Below, piece after piece: positions 1 through 19,268 of a stretch of 20,000 bases of DNA. Source of the stretch: an uncultured virus (IMG/VR IMGVR_UViG_3300001419_000001) (Duplodnaviria; Heunggongvirae; Uroviricota; Caudoviricetes); the IMG/VR virus record IMGVR_UViG_3300001419_000001, positions 47,123 through 67,122 of that record; one strand, 5' to 3'. Position 1 is the stretch's first letter. Every line of letters begins with the position of its first letter. The notes beneath the pieces are model-generated. The model was given only the letters and a program-made list of their open reading frames with translations. It ran no database searches and was not told where the DNA came from. Made by a program: the position numbers and the translations under genes.

Positions 1-3000
1 ATTGATCCCTTGCCTTTCATAAACTCATCGTAGTTCTTATCTGGAAGGGCTTTTTTAAAGGCAGCCCTACTTCTACTACTACCATCTAATCTGTGTCCAT
101 GACCAACTGTTAAGTATTGCTCAGTTTTAGTTGCCTTTCTTGGCTTTGATATAAAACCTTCCTCACCAATAATTAATTTTGCTACATCTCTTTGTGGTGG
201 CAAAGCCATTGTTGTTTGAGAGAGCATAGCAGCAGCCGATCCCAAAGTACCAAGCGAACCTCCTGATGCAGTATTAGAACTTAATGGTATTGTTTTTTCC
301 CCATCAAAAAAGCCACCACCACTGGATTCTTCGCTTGGTAAGTAATCCTCTCCTAGTTTTTCTTCTATTACTTTTATTACATTTTTAGGAAGATCTGCGG
401 TTCGTCTTTTGGGATCTATTGGTTTAACTTCTTTTCTACCGTTAAATATTGGGGCTGTTTGATAAGTAAGCGCACCATAAAGTCCTCCCATACCAATAGC
501 CACTCTTTCTAAATCTCTCATTTCTTTTGGCGTACGAGGATTTACAATTGAATTAGCAACTGATCTTAAATCAATAAATGCCATAAGATCTCCAGAAAGC
601 GGTAGTTCTTGATTACTTCCATTATTCCTTATGATAAACGCACCCTCATTATTTCTTTGAAATCCATACGGATCTCTAGGTATTTCTACTAATCCCCATC
701 CTCCCTGATCAAATGCTCTTCTTAGATCATTATCTTCCAAGTTGCCAGAATTGTATGTAAAATCTGGATATCTAGGATTGGCAAATGATGGTACTTCTTT
801 GTTTGCCAAGTATGATGCTCCTCTCATGAAATCTATTAATGTAATATCTGAAAACGCAAGCGTCTGTATTGTGTCTTTGGTTTTGTCAGATAGTTGATTC
901 CATGTTGCTCCAAAACCGGGAATTCCAGTTTTAATAAACTCTAATCTATTTTTTGAATATTGTTCAGGATTGAAGGAAAGTTTTGGTCTAGAGTTGAAAA
1001 ACAATCCTGCTATTTGGTGTTTATCATTTGCAAAAACATGTTTTCCATTTGAGTCTTGTAAAAGATTATTGGGGAAGTTCCATGATGGTCTTCCATTTTT
1101 ATTTAAATATGGCGGCGGCACATTTAAAGATTTTGTTTGATCGAATCCACCTCTCATGTTTGTTGAGCGATAGGACCAATATGGACCCACTGGTCTTGTG
1201 ACATTTGACAAAAGGAATTCATCTGCAATTTTTTCAAATCTATCGCTATAAGATAGACCTTGTTCTGGGGGTATATATCCTTGTTCGTTAGCATATGCTA
1301 AGAACCCTAATGTAAATGCAAAATTATCTGAACGTCCCGGTGTAGTTTCTGACGCAAAGGCATCAAAGTTATCCAATAAAATTTTCATCATCTCTAGTTG
1401 ATCTTGATCAGACCCATTACTACCGAATTCCGCAAGTCTGCTTTGGTTTTCTGGATTACGATATGATTGCAATATTTTATTTAATGATATAACATTTGGA
1501 TCATTTGCCCATAATGGTATTACTGTACCCGGAAGAATTGTATCTGATTCATTTAAAGACGATGCATTCCAAGCATCAGCAACTCCTTCTGGAACTCGAA
1601 TAGTAATGTTGTGGTTTGCTCTTTTAAGTAAGTTCAGCATTCCTATTGTAGTATCTAAAGACAATTGTCCTCTGTTGTCATCATTGATAACTATTTGCTC
1701 AGATCGCGGTGCCCTTGTATTTGTTATTGAAACAAGAAGACCTAGTGGTGTTTCTATGTTTAAGTCATCACGATCTTGTAGCGAAGACCTATATAATCTC
1801 GCTGCTTCCATTGCATTTAAATCATTTCCATTGGGCCTAATTTCAGGCATAGCACTGGTAAAATTTGAATTTCTTATGTTATTTAGACTTGCTTTATCAT
1901 CGCCTGCTATAGCAAAGCGAGTTGTAAAACCAAACGATGTTTCTCTAAGAATTCTTTTTTTATCCTCTGGAGAAACATTTTTTAATGCTCTTAGTTGTTT
2001 AGCGACATTCAAAGAAAATGCTAGTGATATGTTGTCAGTTTTTTCATTTGGGTTATTGAATATCCTTGTAAATCTATCTTGATATCTTACAGATGGGTCA
2101 TATGTTAGGTCAACAATATTAGATGAAGCAGGACGACCAATCATGGTATCTGATAGATTGAGTTGAAATGCTGCATTATCTCTTAGAGATATTCCCTCAT
2201 TGGCAACCATTTCTCCAACTCCAATAAATGCAGTTAGAAATGTAAGTGGAGTACCTATCATATCTGGTTCGTCTCCGAAACTCCTTTCAGCATCTGCTAC
2301 AGAAATTAGGAAACTTTCCATTCTATTAATTTTATTCTCATCTACTGTGGGACCATAAATCAAATCATTGCTAAGGTATGCCCATGCTACGGCTCCCTTT
2401 TGAGTTAGTTGTCCTGCTTCCTTATTGAATAAATTAGGATCTTCCCACAAATTTCTCACATCTGCAATAGATGATTTATCAAAATTAAATAACTCTTCTG
2501 ATGATATGGTTATATTGGGACTGACAAGCCCCCAACCAACCAATTGTTTTGTAAACATGTTTCCTGTTTGTGTTCTATACTCAATGTCTAAGGCTGTTTG
2601 ATATAGTTTTGTGGCTGATGCTTCATTGTGACCTGATCGTAATAAGTCCCCTAGAAAATCATCAAGGCTATCTGGATTTTCTTTATATCTTTTTAGAAAA
2701 TCTAATGCTTCGTATCTCATCATGGGGTTTTTAAGCGGATCTTCTGTGTTTATCCATCTATTTATTACATCTCTTGATGCTCCAGAATTTGCCTGCCTGT
2801 TGTCAAACGCACTAAGCACTGCTCTGACTTTGGTTTGGATTGTAGAAGAAGAATCTCCCATAATTCCCAACACTTTTTGAGAAGGCAGTTTTATTTGATC
2901 ACCAAGTCCAAGTGTATCAACAATATCAGCATCGGATACACTCTGATCAAATGGGAATAATTCTCTTGTTATTCTAATAAGCGATGCATTGATTCTATCT

Positions 3001-4634
3001 GCTGCTTGGTCCACATTAGCAGAGGCTAATATATGAGTATCTCCAATTAGATTACTCAAAGTATTTTGATAAATGGTTTGATACTCTCTTGATTGGACTA
3101 CTGTAGAAAGCATCTCATTTTTCTTTGATTGCTGATAAGACATGCCTTTTTCTGTAAGGAAATATATTCCGTTTTCTTCAGTATATAATCCCCTCTCTAC
3201 CAAGTTTTCTTTGCTTGTCTGGAAGTGCAACTCTGCTACTCTAACTTGACTGGAAGATAAAGGCATTCCTCTGTATCCTAGATTGTCATCCCAATATGCT
3301 GATGTTAGGGATATTACAAAAGGAAGAGGTTTGTATTCGTTTTCTGGTGGTCTTGTCAATAAACCTCTCATTCCATCAACAGCATCTTTTTCTGTTGTTC
3401 CTATATACAACTCCGTTGGTGGAATATATTTTGCTCCTTCTGGATTGCTAGCATACTCATTTAATTCCATACTTCTACCCAATACTGTTGCATATCTTTC
3501 TTGTTGTAGTCTTCTTTCTGTCTCTTTACTAGCAATTTTTACAATAGGCCCTTCAACTGAACTTACGAAGGCACGAATTTGGCTTTCTCTTTCTTCAGGA
3601 GTTAAGTTTGGCACAAATTGTAATGAATGATCTGCTATGGCTTGCACCAATCTGTTCAAATTGTTAGCCGTAGGGTTATCTACTATGCTGTCAATAATAG
3701 AGCCATTTACAATATCTCCATCTGCAAAACCAATTGCTTGAAAAAACTGATCGGCATTTGGCATATCTCCAACCAATTGTTGAAAACTTGGGAAGATTGT
3801 GTTTATGTCTCCATTTGTTGATAAGGCTACAAACTCAGGAAGAACATCAACCACAGTTGACATTGAATCTTTCCATCCTTTGGTAGCCTGTTCTAATAGA
3901 TAACTATTAGCACCCCTAGAGTAAGAAGAGTTGTTTTTAAATATACCTAGTTGAATCTGTTCCATTGCTGTAGATTTTGTGTCACGATATGAATTTATTT
4001 GTGTGACCAAATCGTTTATTTTTGGATCGGATCTAAACGCTATATCCATTGCAGCAGGATTCAATAAAGGATTATCTCTATTAAATCTATCTACTTCTTT
4101 TTGATACTCAAGGAAAAGTTCATTTAATCTGCCATCAACATTTTGATTTCTTTGTGCTAAGATTGACGTTTTCAATCTAGATGCTTCTGCTTTCCCACCA
4201 GATGTGATAAGATTACCAAGCATTCTTTCTTGAATATCCAGTTCCAACTGAGACTTTCCTTCTGGTCTGTTGATAGGATATTCATTGTTGTTGTAGTTGT
4301 AAAGTGATTCTCCATTGAGGGAGGCTTGCTCAACTTTATTCAACTCGACTTGGTATGCATTGATTGCATCTTGATCGTGTCTTTGGTCTCTTTGTCTTTG
4401 TGCCTGCTCTAGTTGACCCGGTATTTGTGCCAGTCCCATTGCAGCATTTGCAATATTAGCCAGATTACCATACATGTATTCTTCTTGTGATTGACTGGGA
4501 AGACGACCATAGACATCTCCAAGTTGGATTTGCCCTCCAACAACCTGCCCCTGTCCATAGTATTGTGGAGACGGTGTGACAATATCGGTATTAGGTGGTA
4601 CTGCCTCTGGTCGAATCATTCTTGGATCAATCAT
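1..4634 (-). CDS. Large internal virion (DNA ejection) protein, gp15/gp16-class, with a lysozyme-like (GH24) domain at the window edge; 3'-truncated, >1540 aa
   Basis: Missing from the ORF track, consistent with no stop inside the window. ATG at 4634-4632 follows an AAGGAG SD and reads MIDPRMIRPEAVPPNTDIVTPSPQYYGQGQ.... I translated about 4634-2520 and 209-1 by hand: no stops, same frame. Mostly helical-looking sequence. Near the edge it reads LIIGEEGFISKPRKATKTEQYLTVGHGHRL, resembling T4 lysozyme [27 protein letters not shown]. It directly follows a gp14-like gene. Confidence 0.8.
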   Translation of the reverse strand, partial: MIDPRMIRPEAVPPNTDIVTPSPQYYGQGQVVGGQIQLGDVYGRLPSQSQEEYMYGNLANIANAAMGLAQIPGQLEQAQRQRDQRHDQDAINAYQVELNKVEQASLNGESLYNYNNNEYPINRPEGKSQLELDIQERMLGNLITSGGKAEASRLKTSILAQRNQNVDGRLNELFLEYQKEVDRFNRDNPLLNPAAMDIAFRSDPKINDLVTQINSYRDTKSTAMEQIQLGIFKNNSSYSRGANSYLLEQATKGWKDSMSTVVDVLPEFVALSTNGDINTIFPSFQQLVGDMPNADQFFQAIGFADGDIVNGSIIDSIVDNPTANNLNRLVQAIADHSLQFVPNLTPEERESQIRAFVSSVEGPIVKIASKETERRLQQERYATVLGRSMELNEYASNPEGAKYIPPTELYIGTTEKDAVDGMRGLLTRPPENEYKPLPFVISLTSAYWDDNLGYRGMPLSSSQVRVAELHFQTSKENLVERGLYTEENGIYFLTEKGMSYQQSKKNEMLSTVVQSREYQTIYQNTLSNLIGDTHILASANVDQAADRINASLIRITRELFPFDQSVSDADIVDTLGLGDQIKLPSQKVLGIMGDSSSTIQTKVRAVLSAFDNRQANSGASRDVINRWINTEDPLKNPMMRYEALDFLKRYKENPDSLDDFLGDLLRSGHNEASATKLYQTALDIEYRTQTGNMFTKQLVGWGLVSPNITISSEELFNFDKSSIADVRNLWEDPNLFNKEAGQLTQKGAVAWAYLSNDLIYGPTVDENKINRMESFLISVADAERSFGDEPDMIGTPLTFLTAFIGVGEMVANEGISLRDNAAFQLNLSDTMIGRPASSNIVDLTYDPSVRYQDRFTRIFNNPNEKTDNISLAFSLNVAKQLRALKNVSPEDKKRILRETSFGFTTRFAIAGDDKASLNNIRNSNFTSAMPEIRPNGNDLNAMEAARLYRSSLQDRDDLNIETPLGLLVSITNTRAPRSEQIVINDDNRGQLSLDTTIGMLNLLKRANHNITIRVPEGVADAWNASSLNESDTILPGTVIPLWANDPNVISLNKILQSYRNPENQSRLAEFGSNGSDQDQLEMMKILLDNFDAFASETTPGRSDNFAFTLGFLAYANEQGYIPPEQGLSYSDRFEKIADEFLLSNVTRPVGPYWSYRSTNMRGGFDQTKSLNVPPPYLNKNGRPSWNFPNNLLQDSNGKHVFANDKHQIAGLFFNSRPKLSFNPEQYSKNRLEFIKTGIPGFGATWNQLSDKTKDTIQTLAFSDITLIDFMRGASYLANKEVPSFANPRYPDFTYNSGNLEDNDLRRAFDQGGWGLVEIPRDPYGFQRNNEGAFIIRNNGSNQELPLSGDLMAFIDLRSVANSIVNPRTPKEMRDLERVAIGMGGLYGALTYQTAPIFNGRKEVKPIDPKRRTADLPKNVIKVIEEKLGEDYLPSEESSGGGFFDGEKTIPLSSNTASGGSLGTLGSAAAMLSQTTMALPPQRDVAKLIIGEEGFISKPRKATKTEQYLTVGHGHRLDGSSRSRAAFKKALPDKNYDEFMKGKGS

Positions 4635-4645
4635 TTAAAGTCTCC

Positions 4646-5326
4646 TTAAGGTCTTGCTAGGTAATATGGTGCAGGTGTTTGACCAACTTGTGGTGCTGAT
4701 GTGCCCATGCCGGAAATAGAGGCATACGCGCCTAGACCTGACGCAAGACCACCTGCTGTTCCTGCAATAATATTCATTGCCCCATAGGATTCTCCTATTG
4801 GCTTTTGACTGGATAACTGTAGGTTGGGCATGATTAAATCAAAGCGTTGTTGATTCATCATATTCTCCATTTGTCTCTTGATATTGTTTTCTGTTTGTTT
4901 ATAGTTTCTATCTGACTGCATTGTTTGATTTAGGAAGTTTGCACTTTGTGCTAGGCTCAATGCCTTGGCTGTGCCTCCAGATATTTTGGATGCTGCTAGT
5001 TGATTACCTAATGCACCTTTCATTTGTCTGTAGGTTTTGCTCATCTCCCCATCTGCAAATGATTTTTGGAGGCTAAGTGCTTTAAGTGAATCGCTCTCAA
5101 AAAGATATGCTGCTCGTTGAATGGCAGCATTTCGTTCCATTTGTTGTTGCTGGGCATAAGAGGCATTGAATAATTGCTTACCATTGTTGATGGCCTTTTG
5201 CATTTCTCCCTGAATCCAAGCCTGTCGTGCTTGTTGCTCTCTTCTTCTAGCAGCAGAATTGCCTGTAATACCTTGAAAAATACCGCTTACTATGCCAGCA
5301 CCTAGTGCAATTGCTCCTAAATCCAT
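4646..5326 (-). CDS. Internal virion protein, T7 gp14-like (ejection protein)
   Basis: 226 aa. Gly/Ala-rich hydrophobic N-terminus (MDLGAIALGAGIVSGIFQG), Gln/Ala-rich helical middle, second Gly/Ala-rich segment near the C-terminus (IIAGTAGGLASGLGAY). This is the usual gp14-class layout. GGAGG SD; sits before the large ejection gene. Confidence 0.7.
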   Translation of the reverse strand: MDLGAIALGAGIVSGIFQGITGNSAARRREQQARQAWIQGEMQKAINNGKQLFNASYAQQQQMERNAAIQRAAYLFESDSLKALSLQKSFADGEMSKTYRQMKGALGNQLAASKISGGTAKALSLAQSANFLNQTMQSDRNYKQTENNIKRQMENMMNQQRFDLIMPNLQLSSQKPIGESYGAMNIIAGTAGGLASGLGAYASISGMGTSAPQVGQTPAPYYLARP

Positions 5327-5329
5327 ATG

Positions 5330-6994
5330 TTACCTCCATCCCCATTGGTTACTTTTCTTTTGTTGCTTCTTGGCTGTCAGTTCGCGAATAGCCCCACTGT
5401 GGGGAATCCAGTCAGAAGCCCTGAAATCGCTAGCCCAACTAGCAACCATGTTTTCCCATTCTTTTTGTTTATTATCTTGAATAAGTCTATCTGTATTGTA
5501 TTGCATCATGTCCTTGTAGAAGTCCACGGCACTGGCAAGGGCATCAATGCGGTCATCATGTTTGAGGCATCCACGCTCGTCTGTGAGCCTTGTGAGTTGG
5601 ATCTGGTTCTTCTCATCCTTGGCTACCCTACGATCCCATACAAGGCGATGCTGGGCTATCACAGGCTCTAGGGTATCCAGCATCCTTGCTTCCTTCCGTC
5701 CCGATACACGGAACTCCTCGATGCCTATACGCCCACAGTTCTCAATGAGGAATGGGGTAATGACTTTGGAAAAGAGACCATCACCAAAGTTGGACTCTAC
5801 CCGTACCATTTTGATCCCATATTCTAAACATAATTTAGCAATTTTGTTTAGGACAGCATCGTTGTATCCCCCCTCCCATCCAATCAGTTCGTGGATGTAG
5901 ATCATCCCACCAGCCGTGGAGGCAATGCATACAGCAGTCTCATCTGCCCCACGACCAGAGGGATCTATGACCATGTGTCTATGTTGATAGTCCACATAGT
6001 TTGAGGATATGTGCATAGGTTCCATGATCATATCCCCACCCAGTCCCCAACTTGGCATCTTCTTATTGGCGTTTTGACCCTGCCAGATGACTTTCTCTGG
6101 AGCCTTGTCAAACGGCACATCGAATACGATGAGATCGGACAGCTTCAACGGATACTTGTCTATATCTGACAGGGTAGTATCAAGCATGTATTGCAAGGCA
6201 AAAGCCTTGGGTCCAATCTTAGCCTTGCGTTCCATGAGCATTTCCGTGTCAAAACGCTCAGGCTGGGTGGACTCGCCAGCAGCAAGATTAAGATCCCATA
6301 TCCAATCAGCAATATCCTCGGATTCACCGGGGAGGCTTTGGTCAGGCATGAGAGCAGGATACTTGACCAATGGATATGATTGCTTGAGTACTGTATATAT
6401 TGATTCCGCAGAGTGCGGTGTCCCTAGGAACAAGACTCTTGATCCCTTGTTCCTGACGGACTCTAGTTCGGTTAGTTTGTGAAGAAGACGCTCTCTTGCT
6501 TCTACAGTTTGGGTATTGGTTGAGATCTCTACGTCATCACAGATGATGAGATCTGCGTGGAGTCCTGTAATCTGAGAGGTTGATCCTCTGGCAGTGCAGG
6601 ATAGATCCTGTGTGAATGATGTTCTGATATTGTGATTGAAGCCAAGTGCCGAGTCTTTGGTATGCTCATCTGGAATCATGTGATTGCAGTATGGCACCAT
6701 GTTCAGGATCTTTCTTGTTTGAGATACAAACTCAATGGCTTTCTGTTGGGTGGCAGACAACACCAATACAGTCTTGTTTGGATTTGCCATCATGAACCAT
6801 GAGGCAAACATGGCGGTGAGCGTGGACTTCCCTGTTCCACGCCCAGCCGCCAGAATGAAATCGTTTGGTCCATACTGAAGTTGTCTTGAGATTTCATATT
6901 GCATGGGGGTAGGCTCTCCAAGTCCTAGGTGCTTCATGCAAAAGAACACATGGTTCCTGAAATCATTAACGACTTCTTCAGTAGGTTTAATCAA
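5330..6994 (-). CDS. terL: Terminase large subunit (T7 gp19-like DNA maturase B)
   Basis: Walker A AGRGTGKST; QITGLHADLIICDDVE (Walker B); FLGTP coupling motif; nuclease motifs VIDPSGRGADET, VESNFGDG and KHDDRIDAL, as in the T7 gp19 family. Predicted TTG start overlaps the terS stop. Confidence 0.97.
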   Translation of the reverse strand: MIKPTEEVVNDFRNHVFFCMKHLGLGEPTPMQYEISRQLQYGPNDFILAAGRGTGKSTLTAMFASWFMMANPNKTVLVLSATQQKAIEFVSQTRKILNMVPYCNHMIPDEHTKDSALGFNHNIRTSFTQDLSCTARGSTSQITGLHADLIICDDVEISTNTQTVEARERLLHKLTELESVRNKGSRVLFLGTPHSAESIYTVLKQSYPLVKYPALMPDQSLPGESEDIADWIWDLNLAAGESTQPERFDTEMLMERKAKIGPKAFALQYMLDTTLSDIDKYPLKLSDLIVFDVPFDKAPEKVIWQGQNANKKMPSWGLGGDMIMEPMHISSNYVDYQHRHMVIDPSGRGADETAVCIASTAGGMIYIHELIGWEGGYNDAVLNKIAKLCLEYGIKMVRVESNFGDGLFSKVITPFLIENCGRIGIEEFRVSGRKEARMLDTLEPVIAQHRLVWDRRVAKDEKNQIQLTRLTDERGCLKHDDRIDALASAVDFYKDMMQYNTDRLIQDNKQKEWENMVASWASDFRASDWIPHSGAIRELTAKKQQKKSNQWGWR

Positions 6995-7212
6995 TATGTT
7001 GATTCCTTGATCTTGAAGGGTGCAGCCTCGGACATTGCCTTGGTTACTTCTTCAAGTGCTTGACTTGGGATGCCATCTGCTGCTTCTCTATTGTCATTGA
7101 TGATGCCACGGATGACGGTATATAGCCCCGGAGTACACTTGTCAGGATCCTTGAGATCCCGAACAAGTGAATCCAGTAGCATCTCATTTAAGATCTGTAC
7201 TTTACTCTTCAT
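6991..7212 (-). CDS. terS: Terminase small subunit (T7 gp18-like DNA maturase A)
   Basis: 73 aa, directly upstream of terL. LNEMLLDSLVRDLKDPDKCTPGLYTVIRGIINDN resembles the gp18 pattern (MLADL...SPQLYNAI.KLL). Confidence 0.85.
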   Translation of the reverse strand: MKSKVQILNEMLLDSLVRDLKDPDKCTPGLYTVIRGIINDNREAADGIPSQALEEVTKAMSEAAPFKIKESTY

Positions 7213-10408: not shown

Positions 10409-12256
10409 TTATACTATTGGTAGTTTACTTGCTCTGGCTGGGGTTACAAATAGTGTTGTTGCACTTACAGCAACACCAATTGGATCTACCAATGCACCAG
10501 AACCTGATGGGGATGTAGATGTAATTCCTCCTGCAACTGTAGCAGATAGCCAATACCAGTTTCCAATTTCCAAATTGGTAAATCCAGACACGGCTCCAAT
10601 AAATACAACAGAAAAACTTTGGTTGTCTGATGAACCAGACAGTCCATCAATCATTCCTATTCCAAGTGTTGCTGGATTGTTTGCTTGTGATTTTGTCCAC
10701 AGACCTGTTCCATTGTCTAAATAAACAACATCCCTATTTGCTAATGAAGTGTTTGATCCTGCTACTTGCCAAGCAACATGGTTTGTTACTGGTGAGCCAA
10801 TGCCAGCAATAATCTTACCAGTTGCATCTGTTTTAAGATAATCCGCACTTTGAACATTGTCAACTACCACATCCCAACCAGTTATTGTATTTGATGTTGT
10901 TATGGTTCCTATTGTACCAATATTTCCTGTTGTTGCAGAAAGACTAAGGGTTGGAACAAATGGCGATGAGCATGAGGCTAAAGTACCAAACTGGGCGTCT
11001 CTACCAAACCTAACTCCTGTAAACGGTGGCTCGTTGTTAACATCGAGAGTATCATTACCATAGCAATCCTGTGTTTCTCCATTAGAAAACCATATTAGTT
11101 TGTTTATAAACTCTACTGTTCCACCATCAATATAATGGCTTGTGGCACCAGCAAACAAACTGTCATCGTTTATTGTAAACAATACATCTCCAGATGATGT
11201 ATTAGTTGAGGCTGTTGATTTGACAACCTCAAATGCATTGTGATTTCCTCTACCTTTAACAGATACCACTGGAGTATTTACTACTGTGTCGGTTGGAGTA
11301 TAATTAAACCAATTGTTTCCAGAAGAGTACACACTTCCTTTAGCCCAGATAGACATGTTGTTGTTGAGTATAAGGGAATTACTGGAAGTAAGGTTGAATA
11401 TGATATCGTTACTAGAATTGTTTACTGATAATACATCTGTAGATTGACTTGCATGTGTTATGATTTTTAATGCTGAGGCATTTGCATTTGAAACTTTTAT
11501 AGTGTTCCACTCAAGTTCTTCTCCAGTTACACCCGGAAGTTTTCTAATGTATCCTAGACTATTCAATACTGTTGATTTTTGCGATGACCAATATGCTACA
11601 CCACCTCCGCTTTCCGATGGTTGGTTTTGTAGCGTTCCTGTGTGGCTAGTTGTACAATACCAAACAGTATCATTAGTTGCTTCTGTATTAGGATCGTCAT
11701 GTTTAACAACATCACCTTGGATATAACTAGTACCCTCTTGCCAAGACTCAACCAATCCTAAATTATTAAGGACTGCATCAATTTCTGTTTTGTTATAGTA
11801 GTTGGCAAGAGAAGCACTGATAAATGAATAGATGTCTGCATCCTCTCCATCCAATCGTGCTGCCTCTTCTTCCAACAAGTGAAGTGCCTGAGTATTTACA
11901 ACATTCAAATCTCTGCCACTTAACTTTGCACCATCAACAAAAGTAGTATATAGGCTAGTGGAAGTAACCCTAACTAACTTAAGTTTGTGTATTGCAGGAT
12001 CTAGATATGCTGGAATCTGCTCATTGCTTTGTCCTGTATAGGTAGCATTTTTTAAACTGACCGTTGATGCGTTGCTTAAAGTATGGATCCATGATGGTCT
12101 ATATAGTTCAGTCCATGGGTTGGTGTTGTTGTCAACCGCAAAGTAAATCTTTAATTGAGCAACCCCAAGTTCTTGAATGAGTTGTATAGGAGACCATGAT
12201 ATAAATTCAATATCATAACCACTTCCTGCTGATTTGATTACTTCTACTGTAGCCAT
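10409..12256 (-). CDS. Tail fibre protein with N-terminal T7 gp17-like anchor, CBM5/12-like module and C-terminal beta-rich domain
   Basis: 615 aa. KLVRVTSTSLYTTFVDGAKLSGRDLNVVNTQALHLLEE matches the gp17 N-domain end (ELRRVTS...FTDGSILRAYDLN.AQIQTMHVAEE). WQEGTSYIQGDVVKH...VWYCTTSHT...W is CBM5/12-like. Confidence 0.8.
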   Translation of the reverse strand: MATVEVIKSAGSGYDIEFISWSPIQLIQELGVAQLKIYFAVDNNTNPWTELYRPSWIHTLSNASTVSLKNATYTGQSNEQIPAYLDPAIHKLKLVRVTSTSLYTTFVDGAKLSGRDLNVVNTQALHLLEEEAARLDGEDADIYSFISASLANYYNKTEIDAVLNNLGLVESWQEGTSYIQGDVVKHDDPNTEATNDTVWYCTTSHTGTLQNQPSESGGGVAYWSSQKSTVLNSLGYIRKLPGVTGEELEWNTIKVSNANASALKIITHASQSTDVLSVNNSSNDIIFNLTSSNSLILNNNMSIWAKGSVYSSGNNWFNYTPTDTVVNTPVVSVKGRGNHNAFEVVKSTASTNTSSGDVLFTINDDSLFAGATSHYIDGGTVEFINKLIWFSNGETQDCYGNDTLDVNNEPPFTGVRFGRDAQFGTLASCSSPFVPTLSLSATTGNIGTIGTITTSNTITGWDVVVDNVQSADYLKTDATGKIIAGIGSPVTNHVAWQVAGSNTSLANRDVVYLDNGTGLWTKSQANNPATLGIGMIDGLSGSSDNQSFSVVFIGAVSGFTNLEIGNWYWLSATVAGGITSTSPSGSGALVDPIGVAVSATTLFVTPARASKLPIV

Positions 12257-12258
12257 TG

Positions 12259-15200
12259 TTATCCCTCAAACAAATTGGTTTGTGGAGTTGTCACCGTGTA
12301 GAAACTCACCCTAATATTTGCAGGGATTCCAAGACGGATAAACTGTACTGCTGTTTCAAGACTAAATGCTGCGGCAGATCCACCATCTGTTGGGCTATTG
12401 TTGTGCTTATTGATATACATATCTTCATAATAAGGTGGATGATTATTTATATTTGATGTGCTATTTGCTTCTGGTTGTGCAACAGAAGTACTATCCCAAT
12501 CATGAGCGTGATAATCTGCCAGCCAATCCAATGCAAGTTGTCTAAAGTTACCATCACTATCAGCATATACATCAATTAAACCAATTCGTTTAAGTCTTGG
12601 TACCTTAAGAACAAGATCAAATCCATTACCTGTCTTGTTCCTAATGTCAATACCAAGTTTTTCATAAGGATAAGTATCCCATGCTCTTACTACATTGGCA
12701 TCAAAGTCATCTGGGTAAATATGATAACCATCTGAGTTGGTTCCGCCAGATCCAATTTGAGTGCATCCGGTGCCCCCGTCATCACAACCATCAATGTACT
12801 TCTCTACCTTTGCTACAATCTCATAACAATTTGCATCAGGGCAGTTTGTAGTTGTTACAGACCCAGCCGTAGAGAATTGAACTTCAAACACATACTCATC
12901 ATACATGTCAGGAAGAACTCTTTCAAGGTTTGTGAATACTTTATTTGCGTCAACTTTGATTGAATAACTACCGCCCTTAGCCATGGTTAAATCAGTAGGA
13001 TCTGCTAAATAATCTGTATACCAGTTTGTAGATGCTGGTAGAATAGTATAACTATTGTCATTTTCAAGAGATACTTTAGCAGGATCAAATGGATTATAAT
13101 AACTGGTACTGTCTATATTGGCTGGATCGCTTGAGTCATTCCCACTATCATAACCTGTTATCCACCATCGCCAATAGAACCAGTTGCTCCCAGTCCCTGC
13201 TCCAAGATATGTTGAAACATCAGTGGGAATCCCCGACTCATCAACTTTACCAAGCGTATCCATATTACCATCCCATACGATATACGAAGGTGGGCTTCCT
13301 GTTCCATCCCACAGATGCGATAGGTAGTATGTAACAACACTTGGTACATGTTTTGTATTGGAGTAGTTATTAAGATTCAATGCATCGGTAAATTGATAAT
13401 TGACAGTAATCATACTGTTTGTTTGATCTGTATATTGAACACTTGCATTTGGATAATCGGTCAATGGATGTTCTTCTGTATAACCAAGTGCTGTGCCCCA
13501 GTCAGATTTATTAATGACACTGCGAACTCTAGAAAGATATCTGTCTGTAGTTGGGTTAAGTGTCCCACTTGTAAACTCTAATCCAAAGGTATGGGTCTTG
13601 CTTGGGTTGTATAAGAACTTTTCAATATTGGTCATATATAACTTGTTCTTGCATACTGAGCAAGTAAGTGCAGGCCATGGCCTATAGTATGCCAAATCTG
13701 ATTGTGTTGGATCTGATCCTGTTAGAGTACCCCCTGTGCCGGGGTGGTCTAAGGTATCAAACTTGTTGATATCAAAATAAGCAAGGGGATAGTCTGATAT
13801 ACTTGAAATATTTCTACCCTCTCCTCTACCAATTTCCCATCTAAATGATGTTAGGATTATGCCGCCAGATGCCGTGCTGGTACTGATTTGATTTGCAATA
13901 TATACTGGTAGTTGTTCCGTTGGATCTCCTAGTTGATCTGAGATCTGTTGCTGTGCGGCGTAGTATCCCAACCCAAAGGATGTAATGGCATTGGGTATTA
14001 GATCCTTGGGTACAGCCATGCAGCCTGTAGTCAATGCTCCCCATGCAGCATCTATATCAGTATCACACTGCCCTAGAACATAATAGTCATCAAGATCATT
14101 ATTGGCTGTTGTGTTGTAGGTTTCAAAGGTTTCAAAGTAAGTTGCAGCGGCTGGCAGGGATGCATTAACCCAATTGGTTCCGTTGAAAGAAAGGAACTCC
14201 CCACTTGTTACACTGGTAATGCTTACATTATTTAGATTATCTAAAGTAATATTACCAGCAATCTGTGAGGGTGGTGCCCCCACAAATGATCCATTACCAT
14301 CCCAAATCAATACATCATTAGCAGTTACGCTTGACAGGTCAAAGTTAAATGGAGAACTGGTTGATGGTGTTACTGTAAACAATGCTCCACCTGACCCATC
14401 ATCATTAGCAACTTGATAATAGTTGTTACTTGCAAATTCCTTTTCTTGAATTAAGAAGAGCAACTGGTGCAAAGATGTATTAAGATCTTCAGCACTTAAC
14501 TTGGCTCCATCCTTGAATGTCAAGAACATTCTCTTGTCATCACTACATCTTTCAAATCTTAATTTTGCAAACCCAGCAACAGTAACCGATTGTTGTAAAG
14601 TAACTGTTGCATCTTGCTCATTGATTTGGAAATCAGTCTCATAAGTTAGTTGAGTTTTGTTTCCGCTTCCATCTACAAGATAGACACATAATTGAAGTGA
14701 GTCAGGTACAGAACACAGTGTTGCTACATTACCGTATCCATAGGGGGTTCCAGTAGTAGGATTATCATATTCAATAATAACCGAGGCACCCAAGTTGGAT
14801 GGGTTGTAATAGATTGGATCATTTGTATTAAAATCGTAACACACTGTTTCTTCTCCTGTTGTACAGTCTGGATTGTATGGGTTTGGACATGGATCATCTT
14901 CATAACAACCAAACCAAATAGGAATGTAACTTCCTCCGCACTCATAACAATTGGCACTAAAGTCTGCACATTGTGGTGGTTCACATGCCCCTTGTTCGAC
15001 TTCTTCGCAAGTAATCCATATAGAACTGTTTGGGCATTGACAACAATTTACACTGCATTGTTCAGCAGTTGGGTCAATGTTACAGTACTCACATGATTGG
15101 CAAAAACTTTCAGGCATTGGGTATCCATATGGTTGACACCCTTCACCACACGTTGGACAACATAAATCTTCTGGTGCCCAGATACCACAGTTTTCAAAAC

Positions 15201-15858
15201 CCGGATAACAACACTCAACACAGCCGGGTTCTCCGGGTACACAGCATGTTGATGGACATGTTTCAGTAGATGGGATTAACTTACATCCGCCGCCCTCACC
15301 ACACGGGCATGGAACATAATCATCACATCCACCATTACATGGATTGCACAATGAATCTTCACTGTCGCAATCAACAAACTGACCATATTCATTTATACAT
15401 TTATTGTTATCCAGCGCATCACATTGAAAAACCCCACAAAGAGTTAGATCATAATTGCAATCTTCTGGAATAACACCACAAGGAATTGTTGATCCATTGT
15501 CGCAAAATTCACCAAGTGCATCACAAAATGCTCCCCCTAAATTGTCTGCACATTGTTCACATATACCGCAATTGCAGTTTTCTTGGCCTACATATTTAGA
15601 CATTATACAAATTAACGACCAAAGAGTATTACCGCAGTTGTTGTATAAATCACAAATATTACAAATAGATGATCCTAATGCAGCAAGTTGGTGTGTAGGA
15701 TTATCAGGATTAAGGCCGGGAGAAATAGTAATCTTTGGATTGGATCCATAATAACTATTCCACTGAGCGTTTTCATTCTCCGTCTTCTCAAAGGCGTATT
15801 GCACCCATTGAGCATTTGTAAACCATCTATATGACGGTGAACGAATCCAGTCAGCCAT
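12259..15858 (-). CDS. Large tail fibre/spike protein: Cys-rich N-terminal extension, internal gp17-like anchor domain, unknown C-terminal region
   Basis: 1199 aa, AAGGAG SD. 49 Cys in residues 66-340. Residues ~360-472 resemble the gp17 N-domain (LRFERCSDDKRMFLTFKDGAKLSAEDLNTSLHQLLFLIQE). Then two fibre-type repeats (VTANDVLIWDGNGSFV; VTSGEFLSFNGTNWVN). Confidence 0.75.
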   Translation of the reverse strand: MADWIRSPSYRWFTNAQWVQYAFEKTENENAQWNSYYGSNPKITISPGLNPDNPTHQLAALGSSICNICDLYNNCGNTLWSLICIMSKYVGQENCNCGICEQCADNLGGAFCDALGEFCDNGSTIPCGVIPEDCNYDLTLCGVFQCDALDNNKCINEYGQFVDCDSEDSLCNPCNGGCDDYVPCPCGEGGGCKLIPSTETCPSTCCVPGEPGCVECCYPGFENCGIWAPEDLCCPTCGEGCQPYGYPMPESFCQSCEYCNIDPTAEQCSVNCCQCPNSSIWITCEEVEQGACEPPQCADFSANCYECGGSYIPIWFGCYEDDPCPNPYNPDCTTGEETVCYDFNTNDPIYYNPSNLGASVIIEYDNPTTGTPYGYGNVATLCSVPDSLQLCVYLVDGSGNKTQLTYETDFQINEQDATVTLQQSVTVAGFAKLRFERCSDDKRMFLTFKDGAKLSAEDLNTSLHQLLFLIQEKEFASNNYYQVANDDGSGGALFTVTPSTSSPFNFDLSSVTANDVLIWDGNGSFVGAPPSQIAGNITLDNLNNVSITSVTSGEFLSFNGTNWVNASLPAAATYFETFETYNTTANNDLDDYYVLGQCDTDIDAAWGALTTGCMAVPKDLIPNAITSFGLGYYAAQQQISDQLGDPTEQLPVYIANQISTSTASGGIILTSFRWEIGRGEGRNISSISDYPLAYFDINKFDTLDHPGTGGTLTGSDPTQSDLAYYRPWPALTCSVCKNKLYMTNIEKFLYNPSKTHTFGLEFTSGTLNPTTDRYLSRVRSVINKSDWGTALGYTEEHPLTDYPNASVQYTDQTNSMITVNYQFTDALNLNNYSNTKHVPSVVTYYLSHLWDGTGSPPSYIVWDGNMDTLGKVDESGIPTDVSTYLGAGTGSNWFYWRWWITGYDSGNDSSDPANIDSTSYYNPFDPAKVSLENDNSYTILPASTNWYTDYLADPTDLTMAKGGSYSIKVDANKVFTNLERVLPDMYDEYVFEVQFSTAGSVTTTNCPDANCYEIVAKVEKYIDGCDDGGTGCTQIGSGGTNSDGYHIYPDDFDANVVRAWDTYPYEKLGIDIRNKTGNGFDLVLKVPRLKRIGLIDVYADSDGNFRQLALDWLADYHAHDWDSTSVAQPEANSTSNINNHPPYYEDMYINKHNNSPTDGGSAAAFSLETAVQFIRLGIPANIRVSFYTVTTPQTNLFEG

Positions 15859-15870
15859 GTTGATTCTCCT

Positions 15871-18624
15871 TTACTTCTGGATTGAAGTGTCGCCCGGTCT
15901 GAAGTTTCCAATCACTTCTATCGAGGTTATGTTGCAAGGTGTTGGGAAATCACTCTTGATGTAGATGGTGGTTGAGTCGGCATATCCTAGGATCTTTGAC
16001 AACAACTCTCCTTCCCTCTCAATCCGAAGCATTCCAAGAAGATCTGTAGTATCGTTATAGGTAAACGTCTCGCTCCTTACTGAAGATCTTGCCCTATTGT
16101 ATCTTTCAATTTCAATATTATATTGAGCAGAGTTTCGGTGTCTTGTGGTCATCCTCTTAAGATTCAAGACTCCGGGTCTTGCTATGTTCTCTGCGTCTCT
16201 CACATGAAGAGGTGATAGTTGAATGTTCATCTCATACGGTCGCCCTGCCCACACACGCCTTGGCTGATATGATCCATTAGGTTGTCTCTCAGAAGCAAGG
16301 TTTCCGGGCACCAATAAGTTAGTGGTAAAGTGCCCATCATATTCCTGTGAGACAACGCCTGTTGCAATGTGTCTTGTATATCTTCTGCTCTCTGACCATC
16401 CATCGTCCAAAACAACTTCAATAGCCGCAGGATCAAAGTATGGTAGCCTGATGGTTGTGATATTTGAGTCCGCATCATATGTAATCTTGTTTGACTCCAC
16501 TCTAATCAACCTATCAAGCAAAGGTGTGGCAAGGGTGACAGGCTCAAAGGTACCATAGTATGCATAAAGCCTTGGAGTTACACCATTGGTTCTCTTAACA
16601 ACAAGATAGAAACCTGTCTCATATCCTTGTACTGCCATGATCTGATCGTTTTCATCCAATACCCATCGGTAGAATGCATTTTGCACAAGTTGCTGACCAT
16701 TGACCTTTTGGGTATAGATATACATATGATTCTTGTTATCTTTATCAACCATGATGATTGAGTTGTATGATGGAACTGCTGTTACCTCTTGGTAATTGAC
16801 AGGTAGATATCCACGACAATGAGTACTTAACTCATAGGCGGTTGAATACTCATTGCCAAATGCATCTGACCCACTGTACAAGAACAACTTCTCCTCATCA
16901 AAAAAGTATATGTTGGTGCCCATTTTAACTGGGTTTGCTGTGGATGCTGTAGAGTAGAACGACGTGCTTCTCAATTCAATAGACGTGGGTGAAACATTGC
17001 CAGCATTGGTTGATGATCCTCTGATCTCAAACTGATTGCCACTTCTTGTTGTGATGAATAAGAAGTTTTGAAACGATGTTAGACTTTGCACTCTATTAAA
17101 TTGGCCTGTATTTACCGATATGTCAATTGGATCTGAGTCGGTTATGTTCAATGAGTCGTTTAAAAAGAAATTAAAAAACTCATTTACTCTAGAAGCAAAG
17201 ATGGTTGTATCTGTGGCTATCCATAGTCTACCCTTCCAAAACTCCATAGCCTTGATGGTTTCATTGCTATTGATTGCTTCTGGACCGGGGTTGTTAATAG
17301 CAGTACCACTTGTCTTTGGAACCAAAGGAGAATAGCTGATACGCCACTTGCCATCAGATTCCTTTCGGATCATGACAGGAAAAGTTCTATGGTCGATTAC
17401 AGAATTCTTATCCTCTGATCTTACTGGTTGAAAGTAAGGTTGACCATTTTCGGAGTTGCTTACTGTTCTGTAAAACCCAGATGGGAATGAGAAGTATGGA
17501 TCACGGGCATACCAAATCTCTCCCTTTCCGTATGTGTTGGCGGTTTCATAATTATAAATTGAATCGCTACCAGTAATGTCTTTAAATGGTGATGTCAAAT
17601 AACCCGCATCATTTGTAGATCCTGAAATGCCATTCTCGCTTCTATGATACAAATGCTGCATCATTGCTTGTGCTTTCCATCCACAATGAGAATTAACATC
17701 ATCGTCTGGGGGTGGAATAGCAACCTCAGAAAAGTTTTCTACACTATGTCCTACTGCATAGGACTCAAGGCTTACAGAGTTAACTCTTGTTTCGATATCA
17801 TCAATGACATTCTTATAACCACCACCATTAGCAGGATCTGCAACAACACTGATCCATTGATTATATAGATTATCACTATCCTTTGATGGCTCGTAGGGAA
17901 CAGCAGACTTGTCTTCTTCGTTTGCTCCGGGCAGTCTTACTTGTCCTGATCCACCATTAGCAGTATTTCCACTTGAGTCAACAAAAAACATATCTGCTGT
18001 TTTATAATGGATCTTGTCACCAGAATGAATGTATGATGGATCTGGTTCATAAAACCCATCTACACAAGGAGAGCCAAGGTCACAAGAAGGAACAACCTTG
18101 TCTGAGTTGTCTGGTAAAAACCCAAGCCTCATTTGTTTGTTCCAAAAGATTGCACCAGATCCATAGGTAACACTACCCATGATGTCATCAATGGGAAGAG
18201 AAGAGTCTGTTGATAGGTTGTAATGCATAAGATATTCCTTCATGCCTCTATCAAAACTATTTTTATCAAACTCTTCTTCAATCCATTCCGTAGGCTCTAT
18301 TCTGAACACACGAACCATTAGGTTTGTCTGTGTTTGTGCCCGGTTGATGACAATACAAAATCTATTAAGACCATCAACATCAATGAAATGGAAATATAAA
18401 TGATCTGGATTGAAGCCACCACCAGCCACAATGTTGGGTACGTTTAGGTAATCACCTTCCATACTTGTCTTGATGTGCGTAAGAGGTGGTCTCTTTTCGG
18501 CTGATCTTTCAACAGTCAAGAGTACGTTGTCTGCATTCTCCACTTCTTGTGGTAGTCTTTTGGATGACTCTCTTCTGGAGACACCACCATTTAGTGATTG
18601 AATAGGTACTCTTGTTGTTGGCAT
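15871..18624 (-). CDS. Tail tubular protein B (nozzle, T7 gp12-like)
   Basis: 917 aa. N-terminus IQSLNGGVSRR...AEKRPPL matches gp12 (IKNLKGGISQQ...LQKRPPL). Also FWKGRLW, FFNFF...DSDPIDIS, QLVQNAFYRW, and C-terminal IKSDFPTPCNITSIEVIGNF. TAATG overlap with the gp11-like gene. Confidence 0.93.
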   Translation of the reverse strand: MPTTRVPIQSLNGGVSRRESSKRLPQEVENADNVLLTVERSAEKRPPLTHIKTSMEGDYLNVPNIVAGGGFNPDHLYFHFIDVDGLNRFCIVINRAQTQTNLMVRVFRIEPTEWIEEEFDKNSFDRGMKEYLMHYNLSTDSSLPIDDIMGSVTYGSGAIFWNKQMRLGFLPDNSDKVVPSCDLGSPCVDGFYEPDPSYIHSGDKIHYKTADMFFVDSSGNTANGGSGQVRLPGANEEDKSAVPYEPSKDSDNLYNQWISVVADPANGGGYKNVIDDIETRVNSVSLESYAVGHSVENFSEVAIPPPDDDVNSHCGWKAQAMMQHLYHRSENGISGSTNDAGYLTSPFKDITGSDSIYNYETANTYGKGEIWYARDPYFSFPSGFYRTVSNSENGQPYFQPVRSEDKNSVIDHRTFPVMIRKESDGKWRISYSPLVPKTSGTAINNPGPEAINSNETIKAMEFWKGRLWIATDTTIFASRVNEFFNFFLNDSLNITDSDPIDISVNTGQFNRVQSLTSFQNFLFITTRSGNQFEIRGSSTNAGNVSPTSIELRSTSFYSTASTANPVKMGTNIYFFDEEKLFLYSGSDAFGNEYSTAYELSTHCRGYLPVNYQEVTAVPSYNSIIMVDKDNKNHMYIYTQKVNGQQLVQNAFYRWVLDENDQIMAVQGYETGFYLVVKRTNGVTPRLYAYYGTFEPVTLATPLLDRLIRVESNKITYDADSNITTIRLPYFDPAAIEVVLDDGWSESRRYTRHIATGVVSQEYDGHFTTNLLVPGNLASERQPNGSYQPRRVWAGRPYEMNIQLSPLHVRDAENIARPGVLNLKRMTTRHRNSAQYNIEIERYNRARSSVRSETFTYNDTTDLLGMLRIEREGELLSKILGYADSTTIYIKSDFPTPCNITSIEVIGNFRPGDTSIQK

Positions 18625-19268
18625 TATCTGTATCTCCTCCTAGGATCTCTGAAGGAATAGTCTCTTGTCGATGCAAGGAATGTACCGGGATCTTGACCAA
18701 GGAAACTTCGTTTCTTATTGGTGATGTCCGATGCTCTACCTTTGGACATATAAGTTACTTCTCTTTGAGCAAGATACTTGTCTACATTGTGATCGCCTTG
18801 GGTAATCATTTGATAATCCCTAGCAGCCGAAGACATGATACCACGTTGCATAGGAGTCTCAATATCAGACCACTCAAGATCTGTAATCAACATGATCAAT
18901 ATACCATCACTACCTCCCTTGTCTGTCCAATCAGCAGTATGATCTGTTACATTGAATAAATAAGGTGGGCTTCCCTTATAGGAAGCGAGGACATATTGAT
19001 CTCTGTCTTTACTCCAAATAGGCTCACACAGTTCTGCATGAAGCGTATCCGAAGGAAGATAAACATACCCTTGAGAGTTGGGTTGGTATTTTTTATAATA
19101 AGAATTATTGACAAGACCCCTCATGACATAGGAGGTGATTGTCTCATCTAGGATATGCTCTGCAACACTTGTATCAACACCGGAATCGTCTTCCAGATGG
19201 TTGACAATGTGTTCACCCGACATGAGCAACATGTGGTTGACTGCATCCAATCTGGAGAATGTTCCCAT
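18624..19268 (-). CDS. Tail tubular protein A (adaptor/gatekeeper, T7 gp11-like)
   Basis: 214 aa. LDAVNHMLLMSGE...DTSVAEHILDE and WSDIETPMQRGIMSSAARDYQ match the gp11-family pattern. Positioned between capsid and gp12. Confidence 0.9.
   Translation of the reverse strand: MGTFSRLDAVNHMLLMSGEHIVNHLEDDSGVDTSVAEHILDETITSYVMRGLVNNSYYKKYQPNSQGYVYLPSDTLHAELCEPIWSKDRDQYVLASYKGSPPYLFNVTDHTADWTDKGGSDGILIMLITDLEWSDIETPMQRGIMSSAARDYQMITQGDHNVDKYLAQREVTYMSKGRASDITNKKRSFLGQDPGTFLASTRDYSFRDPRRRYR

Follow-up and report, generated by a model that had tools for sequence, protein, structure and literature searches.

Organisation of the fibre gene

The window analysed here is a whole stretch of 20,000 nucleotides (nt) of an uncultured virus (positions 47,123 to 67,122 of IMG/VR record IMGVR_UViG_3300001419_000001), which forms the final 20 kb of a contig of 67,122 bp and has all its genes on the minus strand. 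The element under study is a tail-fibre gene of this window, the protein of which carries an acidic segment of very high cysteine content ahead of a domain that resembles the tail-docking domain of the T7 gp17 fibre. The features of the gene and of its neighbours in the tail module are collected in Table 1.

Residues 66-340 of the protein (nt 14839-15663) contain 49 cysteines in 275 amino acids (aa), that is, 17.8%, with the rest of the composition being dominated by G (28), E (24), P (24), N (21) and D (19; D+E 43), and with only three K and neither R nor H. The counts given for these residues in the original prediction (49 Cys, 3 Lys and no Arg) proved exact on recount of the translation. 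The cysteines are spaced as CxxC (9 times), CC (4), CxC (3) and CxxxC (4), the gaps 340>382 and 382>391 falling outside the segment, and the 1199-aa protein has 60 cysteines in total, 52 of which are placed before residue 450. In the 37 other open reading frames (ORFs) of the same genome that were counted, cysteine accounts for 135 of 18,588 residues (0.73%), and at this background rate the binomial tail for at least 49 cysteines in 275 aa is 1.8e-51. The cysteine density is far beyond chance. Note that the last cysteine, C340, belongs to the fibre domain that follows, and the module proper has 48 cysteines, lying in residues 66-332.

It had also been stated that the segment shows no exact repeat, and internal-repeat comparisons gave no convincing repeat either. 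Internal repeats as a candidate feature are thus unsupported, the best single-sequence match (residues 167-206 against 230-273) having a score of 73 as compared with a shuffle maximum of 64, and the profile-profile comparison of sub-alignments of the module giving only overlaps.

Table 1. Features of the fibre gene and of neighbouring tail genes, in window positions.
Feature	Position	Strand	Basis or content
Tail-fibre gene, long form, 1199 aa (P0001)	12259..15858	-	ORF and translation; PHROG 2710 tail fiber, E 2.2e-5; follows immediately on the nozzle gene
Head (residues 1-65), conserved, aromatic and without Cys	15664..15858	-	Alignment of 16 full-length sequences
Cys module, residues 66-338 (273 aa): 48 Cys, 43 D+E, 3 K, 0 R, 0 H	14845..15663	-	Composition, Cys conservation, AF2 model
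Internal Shine-Dalgarno-like AGGAG, 8 nt before GTG	14853..14857	-	Codon scan and locus comparison
GTG codon of V339, predicted start of an 861-aa isoform	14842..14844	-	Codon conservation
T7-gp17-type tail-docking domain, residues ~340-490	14389..14841	-	Pfam PF03906, Foldseek
Shaft and distal fibre, residues 491-1199	12262..14388	-	8 conserved Cys, in closely spaced pairs
Second fibre-like protein, 615 aa (P0056)	10409..12256	-	gp17-like docking motif, residues 91-131; 3 Cys
Nozzle (gp12-type), 917 aa	15871..18624	-	Pfam PF25675, E 3.9e-69; PHROG 457
Tail tubular protein A / adaptor (gp11-type), 214 aa	18624..19268	-	Pfam PF17212, E 4.2e-13; PHROG 446

An add-on in front of a T7-type fibre

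Residues 1-419 were searched against 1.84 billion representative proteins, with 24 matches. Fourteen of them cover part of the cysteine region, while the other 10 (P0046-P0055) are ordinary fibres of 129-1135 aa, which start with M-[PST]-C-Y-x-Y-S-S-N-D-P and the residue 2-3 of which aligns with residue 339-340 of the query. Moreover, one of these ordinary fibres was traced to the genome of a related phage (locus L019; 37% identity in the nozzle over its full length, 45% in gp11 and 60% in the large terminase, terL), where it starts with MSCY, is located directly after the nozzle and has no such extension. Because ordinary fibres begin at query residue 339-340 and because the fibre of L019 adjoins its nozzle, we take residues 1-338, namely the 65-aa aromatic head and the 48-Cys acidic module, to be an add-on placed before a complete, ordinary T7-type fibre, with C340 being the fibre's own. 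The claim of the original prediction that ordinary fibres lack the segment is borne out by these fibres of related phages (P0046-P0055, among them that of L019).

For the docking domain, Pfam PF03906 is found at residues 403-486 with E 6.6e-4 and 19.8 bits, which is below the cut-off of 25.2 bits, and it is found in 21 of 23 family members, with a best E of 6.1e-7. The Foldseek search with an AlphaFold2 (AF2) model of residues 1-495 gave 12 PDB chains at E<=0.001, all of them podovirus fibre N-termini, with the best rows being Kp9 7y1c_f (3.0e-5), T7 7ey7_a (9.2e-5) and 7boz_a (2.7e-4); the table of matches gives no model ranges, and the match was placed behind residue 340 from the Pfam hit and the fibre-start alignment. 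Residues ~340-490 have the same docking fold as the T7 gp17-type fibres (PDB 7EY7 and 7BOZ) and the Kp9 anchors (7Y1C), with Foldseek E of 3e-5 to 6e-4, and from residue 340 on the protein is, by its predicted fold, a member of the family and would work as a T7 fibre. The likeness extends to the position of the gene, which is likewise in the tail module beside gp11- and gp12-type genes. By contrast with the T7 gp17-type fibres, however, 338 extra residues precede the docking domain, four cysteines are conserved in the docking domain of this lineage, the gene comes immediately after the nozzle, and between it and the gp14-16-type genes lie the terminase genes.

The original prediction placed the segment at the N-terminus of a podovirus tail protein. 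The protein is indeed a fibre with a gp17-type docking domain, while its working N-terminus is to be sought at residue ~340, the segment being an add-on: in the 1199-aa product the docking domain starts at ~340 and is not N-terminal, and it would become N-terminal only in the 861-aa isoform that is predicted below.

The four docking-domain cysteines (C340, C382, C391 and C438; window 14389-14841, minus strand) are invariant in the lineage. They are shared by the ordinary fibres P0046-P0055, most of which have four cysteines in their first 450 residues. This suggests that the four would form two disulfides in the domain lying against the tail.

Conservation and translation of the add-on

Word-indexed and profile searches gave about 30 distinct relatives in metagenomes, all of them without a name or called 'hypothetical protein', with the identity going down to 34% over the whole protein. 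The cysteine positions, on the conservation of which the original prediction was made to depend, are conserved among these homologues: in 16 full-length sequences 24 cysteines of the module are invariant and a further 14 are kept in >=90%, with a mean column identity of 42%. The head is conserved as well, having W4, R6, N15, W18, A22, F23, E24, W33, Y37 and G38 invariant in the 16 full-length homologues. In the family three alternative heads occur, MADW(I/V)RSP..., MPDY..FIPFSYIT... and MPILNSYDLPYF..., each being followed by the Cys module and the docking domain, with the two types other than MADW occurring in distant branches.

The long form is preceded by a main Shine-Dalgarno (SD) sequence, AAGGAG (15866..15871, minus strand), which overlaps the stop codon of the nozzle gene and is located 7 nt before the ATG (15856-15858). 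In all 11 related loci the Cys-fibre comes after the nozzle, the fibre frame is open from the same start in the 11 loci examined, and the N-terminal peptide MADW(I/V)RSP..RWF is kept among homologues. Because of the AAGGAG before the ATG, the conserved head and the frame open in 11 loci, the add-on is translated, as far as sequence can tell, and the segment can be regarded as real and coding, as had been supposed.

Two related observations concern gene calling and RNA libraries. At L011:414 the long form starts with GTG (VADWVRSP...), and L011 shows the full frame for P0017, of which the public gene call (1069 aa) starts far downstream, inside the Cys module; since this call starts inside the module, public calls of the family are sometimes truncated. 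When positions 14300-15900 are divided into 30 bins, short contigs of three RNA libraries, from three studies, are present in 13, 9 and 5 of the bins; one of these contigs (14708-14919) spans the junction, and a fourth run has the whole stretch. DNA in the libraries is a possible source of such contigs, from which neither transcription nor the start site can be read, and they were not used as evidence.

Search for known folds and families

No known relative of the module was found. At E<=1, Pfam gave nothing on the module in 23 family members; this includes the metallothionein family, for which a missing profile match leaves look-alikes possible. The PDB sequence search with residues 1-340 gave 0 matches at E<=1, and the ESM Atlas gave no usable feature match and no model. 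The AF2 model of residues 60-340, calculated from a 23-row alignment, is fairly confident, with a predicted local distance difference test score (pLDDT) of 77.3 and a predicted template modelling score (pTM) of 0.60, and it has four helices in the first third and then only short hairpins; in the head the pLDDT is only 36-57. With the model of the module, Foldseek gave nothing significant, the best E being 1.5 in the PDB and 1.0 in BFVD, and the top PDB rows, all non-significant, being megalin/LRP2 (E 1.5-9), CD320 and plexin PSI. In a VIA-align structural scan of 48,161 chains, a single chain was at Z>=2, with Z 2.1 across 47 residues; models without a match typically attain Z 7-8. These weak structural matches are consistent with an irregular fold stabilised by bridges and are no proof of a new fold.

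Thus, monomer modelling by AlphaFold together with Foldseek and Pfam gave no confident match of the module to a characterised domain, and the suggestion that the segment is an undescribed virion module agrees with the lack of any described family or fold matched in Pfam, the PDB, Foldseek against the PDB and BFVD, and the structural scan. A literature search, with most subscription journals being outside its reach, found no published description of such a module. The finding is therefore best put as that of a real, conserved and probably undescribed domain, accompanied by a probable nested start, within a known kind of protein.

A predicted internal start at the junction

Codons 2-420 were scanned for ATG, GTG or TTG with an upstream SD core. 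One site was found, the GTG of codon 339 with AGGAG 8 nt upstream, and it is also the only in-frame GGAG-N5-10-start in the whole coding sequence of 3600 nt. Codon 339 is GTG in 11/11 loci, with GTG making up 15% of the 781 Val codons in the same genes. The loci of the distant 810-aa clade (L020-L022) have GTG too, with AAGGA at 10 nt, giving GTG in 14/14 loci. GGAG is present 8-10 nt upstream in 11/11 loci, where the encoded residues vary (TGEE, TGGE, QGDE, TGGP, TGDP and FGGP). At the protein level, 43 of 47 family proteins have V before the junction cysteine, 3 have M and 1 has L, the amino acids for which GTG, ATG and TTG respectively code; for the distant members P0043 and P0041, no codon-level locus was found among viral contigs. 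The predicted 861-aa product would start with M-C-Y-D-F-N-T-N-D-P and would correspond to an ordinary fibre. Since the conserved SD-like motif and the GTG are placed exactly at the junction, a second, short isoform is predicted, and the ancestral start has probably been kept in use, so that long and short chains would be made from one gene.

Several points weigh against this. Of the other invariant Val columns, V392 is mixed in its codons, while V360 is codon-conserved as well (GTT in 10/11), and codon conservation alone is thus not unique to V339. Moreover, V, M and L are chemically similar residues, and the 810-aa clade has no more than AAGGA as its motif, at a spacing of 10 nt. The internal SD and GTG could instead be a coincidence of constraints on the protein and on the codons.

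The original prediction raised the possibility that translation starts downstream of the segment. A downstream start is indeed probably real, judging from the SD and the GTG, and it would operate alongside the upstream start, not instead of it. In the extreme case, only the short product would be functional, with the upstream 338 codons being a fused relic or a rarely made extension that has no role in the virion. The conserved SD and GTG at the junction and the short product being a complete ordinary fibre are as expected for such a relic; nevertheless we regard this case as very improbable, because in a relic one would not expect an open frame in 11/11 loci, 24 invariant cysteines together with a conserved head where the overall identity is 34-50%, a strong AAGGAG-N7-ATG or a fold predicted with confidence.

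State of the cysteines: disulfides or metal

The original prediction left two possibilities for the cysteines, a multi-metal binding appendage or a disulfide network formed after lysis. It is quite likely, we consider, that the cysteines of the module form disulfides. The disulfides are favoured over metal because of the even cysteine counts, the pairwise turnover of the cysteines and the avoidance of cysteine elsewhere in the virion, as discussed below.

Firstly, the cysteine counts of the add-ons range from 30 to 67, the count being even in 27 of 32 add-ons (30, 42, 44, 46, 48, 50, 52, 54, 56 and 64), among which 30, 42, 46, 50 and 54 are not multiples of four. Left out of this count are P0018 (5 Cys before the junction), P0017, P0014, P0039 and P0058, which look N-terminally truncated by gene calling or contig ends.

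Secondly, seven co-varying pairs of cysteines are present in an alignment of 24 sequences, from which the turnover was read. C217 and C224 have the same distribution, 16 sequences having both and 8 having neither, and C214 and C230 have been gained together in 3 sequences without 217/224. C154 and C164 are lost jointly in 2 sequences, C273 and C284 in L011, and C84 and C174 in P0011. C186 and C205 are both among six core cysteines that are missing in P0015, and neither is lost elsewhere. C234 and C237 are lost jointly in P0013, which is also without C100 and C146, while C237 alone is missing in 4 others. In addition, a shift from C146 to C148 occurs in 2 sequences.

Thirdly, the giant virion proteins are nearly free of cysteine, with 1 in 3946 aa, 0 in 1672 aa and 1 in 899 aa, and avoidance of cysteine of this kind in the other virion proteins tends to be the pattern of proteins in oxidising media. 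The remaining 12 cysteines of the fibre are in close, conserved pairs.

On the other side, the following points count against disulfides. The count is odd in 5 of 32 add-ons, which are P0019 (67), P0032 (49) and the members P0060, P0061 and P0062 of the 810-aa clade (53, 51 and 53); P0032 sits in a 90% cluster of which the other listed members have 48, and the members of the 810-aa clade still differ by two cysteines. Many of the 32 are kin, and a rough tally of independent parity events gives ~14 even versus 3 odd, with a binomial p of ~0.006. The N-terminus, MADWIRSPSYRWF..., has by eye no hydrophobic signal core, and no Erv, Dsb or thioredoxin-type Pfam match was found in 57 ORFs (13 + 44) at the thresholds used, many small ORFs without annotation not being covered. 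Phage fibres assemble in the reducing cytoplasm, and the correct pairing of ~24 bridges per chain without a catalyst is demanding. There are also motifs of the knuckle or cluster kind, C234-P-T-C237-G, C171-N-P-C174 and C304-Y-E-C307-G-G, together with the conserved C253xxC256xxC259, which keeps its three cysteines in every one of the 16 full-length sequences; among the 24, C253 and C259 are each absent once.

Several of these points are what one would expect if the cysteines bind metal. The module would then be a multi-metal domain (with Zn-Cys4 knuckles, metallothionein-like clusters or Fe-S clusters) that folds in the cytoplasm where the fibre is assembled, and the virion would carry a metal-stabilised appendage or one that senses redox state or metal. 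Besides the cytoplasmic assembly, the nine CxxC spacings, the knuckle-like CPTCG (234-238), CNPC (171-174) and CYECGG (304-309) and the conserved C253xxC256xxC259, the weak and non-significant BFVD neighbours (E >= 1) include zinc-finger proteins. There is a precedent, too, in the lambda gpL-type tail-tip proteins, for which Fe-S clusters are reported (PMC10721106). Under the metal alternative, the module would likewise be a Cys-dependent cofactor site in a phage tail protein. In gpL, however, there is reportedly one four-Cys cluster, at the distal tail tip of siphophages, whereas here 48 cysteines with pairwise turnover are located at the proximal end of a podovirus fibre.

Metal binding nevertheless appears unlikely to us. 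The module has no His, its cysteine counts change by two and are often not multiples of four, and single pairs (217/224, 154/164 and 273/284) come and go while the other cysteines stay. Cys4 sites fit poorly because in P0013 the CxxC knuckle 234/237 is gone while its would-be partner C213xxC216 stays invariant. No Pfam metal-binding family matched even at E<=1, and sites that are all Cys4 would need up to ~216 ions per virion (18 chains x 48 Cys / 4, with a presumed number of chains). Metallothioneins in particular are small, are nearly free of aromatic residues and have no fixed fold without metal; the 25 aromatic residues of the Cys module (Y 13, F 8 and W 4) and the fairly confident predicted fold argue against membership among them. 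Of the two possibilities originally left side by side, then, the parity and the pairwise turnover speak for the disulfide network and speak against the multi-metal appendage, insofar as sequences can tell them apart.

The second fibre-like protein

The gene that follows the Cys-fibre encodes another protein with a gp17-like docking motif, which matches residues 432-473 of the fibre with a BLASTP E of 2e-6 and gives a weak match to Pfam PF03906 (E 0.0086). This 615-aa gene is present after the Cys-fibre in 9/9 loci that extend past the fibre gene, down to an identity of 29%, with a 358-aa gene coming next in 4 of these. After the add-on-less fibre of L019 it is missing, only ORFs of 86 and 94 aa coming next. 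The Cys-fibre and P0056 would be two docking-domain proteins for six tail sites.

It can be imagined from this arrangement that the add-on is a docking platform for the 615-aa second fibre, giving a branched tail with two fibres, and that the cysteines only rigidify the platform. The constant association with a second fibre having its own gp17-like motif, the lack of that fibre where the add-on is lacking, and the presence of the branched-fibre Klebsiella phage Kp9 (7y1c) among the structural matches of the docking domain all point in this direction. On the other hand, the association is a single phylogenetic contrast between one clade and one locus, and a gp17-type docking domain normally binds the junction of adaptor and nozzle, not another fibre. 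We therefore regard the platform as rather doubtful. Note that it concerns function only and is compatible with the disulfide reading of the cysteines.

Genome setting

The ends of the contig overlap by ~320 bp, and because of this overlap the genome, at ~66.8 kb, is probably complete. It is much larger than that of T7 (~40 kb), and the contigs of relatives measure 62-71 kb. The 67,122-bp sequence has six N letters, at positions 1180, 6482, 6487, 6488, 6491 and 13396.

By its Pfam and PHROGs matches, this uncultured water virus can be classed as a phage of the T7 type. In the window the matches are to the major capsid protein, tubular protein A (gp11-type), the nozzle (gp12-type), the small and large terminase and a gp14-like protein, and in the rest of the genome to the portal, the scaffold, a family-A DNA polymerase, a primase-helicase, a single-subunit RNA polymerase, a class II ribonucleotide reductase, ThyX and a dUTPase. 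No close cultured phage was found, the best cultured matches of the terminase being <40% identical. In the database of cultured phages, the fibre gave 0 matches in tblastn with residues 1-419 and with residues 337-1199, which include the shaft, and in megablast with the whole window; in these searches the Cys part of the fibre may have been masked by the low-complexity filter.

The gene order is unlike that of T7, with the fibre genes being directly after the nozzle. The terminase genes (window 5330-7212, minus strand) separate the fibre, nozzle and gp11 genes (12259-19268) from the gp14-like gene (4646-5326) and the giant genes. L019 has a comparable order of nozzle, fibre and terminase, as far as L019 extends. 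Beyond the gp14-like gene, giant ORFs of 1672, 899 and 3946 aa (window 3-4634, minus strand; L018:90-11927 and L018:11943-14639) are at the position of gp15/gp16 in T7 and are several times larger; no Pfam match was found for the two of them that were tested, the 1672-aa ORF, which crosses locus boundaries, being scanned only as its 1544-aa window part.

Two genes of the single-subunit RNA polymerase family are present, of 809 aa (E 1.4e-83) and 595 aa (E 2.9e-14), at L017:2194-4623 and L017:10527-12314 (minus strand), and the second of them is unusual in a T7-type phage. Between the portal and scaffold genes there are a 1036-aa protein (L016:2805-5915, minus strand), in which a BACON domain is combined with a glycine-rich domain at the C-terminus (PF21722, E 1.3e-17), and a 599-aa protein without assigned identity. 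The 1036-aa BACON protein may be a head or neck fibre.

Proposed model of the fibre add-on

We propose a model in which a disulfide-knotted add-on on a T7-type fibre, made from a gene with two starts, forms a knob or collar at the shoulder of the tail. Taken as a whole, this model seems to us somewhat more probable than its opposite. The anatomy of the protein, its conservation, its add-on nature, the lack of known relatives of the module and the conserved codon of the internal start come directly from the results, whereas the disulfides, the time of their oxidation, the place on the virion, the mixture of isoforms and the function are proposed.

In the model, the docking domain mounts the fibre on the junction of adaptor and nozzle in the cytoplasm, as usual. 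The domain that fits into this junction is continuous with the add-on, which would for this reason lie under the capsid, at the shoulder of the tail; each fibre would carry up to 3 copies of it and each virion up to 18. The 48 cysteines would pair into ~24 mostly short-range disulfides, giving a fold poor in secondary structure, for which no related structure has been solved. Since no signal peptide and no Pfam thiol oxidase were found, we infer that the bridges would close only after lysis, in oxic water. The closed module would then be rigid, a knob of about -40 net charge on each chain, and in natural waters it would hold divalent cations. Moreover, the dual start would limit how many of the up to 18 positions carry the add-on, so that virions would have a controlled mixture of chains.

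As to its role, we suggest with low certainty that the add-on is a protease- and denaturation-resistant, cation-binding acidic knob or collar, which braces or decorates the fibre-tail junction outside the cell. The brace or collar is our first choice, with an accessory adhesin or the above-mentioned platform for the 615-aa fibre being the alternatives. The roles put forward in the original prediction (armour, cross-link, mineral binding and redox trigger) are likewise hypothetical. A stronger version can also be put forward, although we give it little credence: the reduced, loose add-on would let the fibres dock, and the ~24 disulfides per chain that form after lysis would turn it into an acidic, rigid collar surrounding the tail shoulder, possibly cross-linking neighbouring fibres, with the copy number set by the dual start.

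Comparison with known systems

With regard to the two starts, in T7 gene 4A/4B a ribosome-binding site and a start inside the gene, in frame, yield a product without the N-terminal part beside the full-length one. The nested arrangement is alike, with the present one being predicted from conservation only. To our knowledge, no nested start has been described for a T7-type fibre, although no dedicated literature search was made on this point.

With regard to the module, LDL-receptor class A, EGF-like and PSI modules have a similar composition, that is, dense paired cysteines, many D/E and little regular secondary structure. By contrast with the LDL-receptor class A and EGF modules, the present module gives no significant match in sequence or fold and has no 40-aa repeat with six cysteines. 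We take the likeness to be one in kind only.

With regard to disulfides in phage tails, the fibres of the cyanophage Pam3 are disulfide-linked to the wedge at their proximal attachment and are freed by DTT (dithiothreitol) (PMC9942802), and Agrobacterium phage Milano is reportedly a second case of a disulfide-stabilised phage tail (PMC10811340). The likeness is that virion tail proteins made in the cytoplasm end up disulfide-bonded. The difference is that there a few cysteines in ordinary domains cross-link subunits, whereas here a dedicated 273-aa domain with 48 cysteines would be bonded mostly within the chain.

Implications

T7-type fibres are among the best-studied organs of host recognition, and their N-terminus is regarded simply as the plug into the tail. 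The lineage described here has put a large domain without a known fold before this plug, and has apparently retained the ancestral start as an internal start. If the model is true, the add-on would be a new protein fold stabilised by ~24 bridges, a clear case of a part of the virion that matures only outside the cell, and a natural example of a stoichiometry of fibre decoration that is set by nested translation. If the stronger, oxidation-timed version were true as well, phages of this 67-kb T7-like lineage would become infective only through a maturation step outside the cell that needs oxygen and that reductants could reverse.

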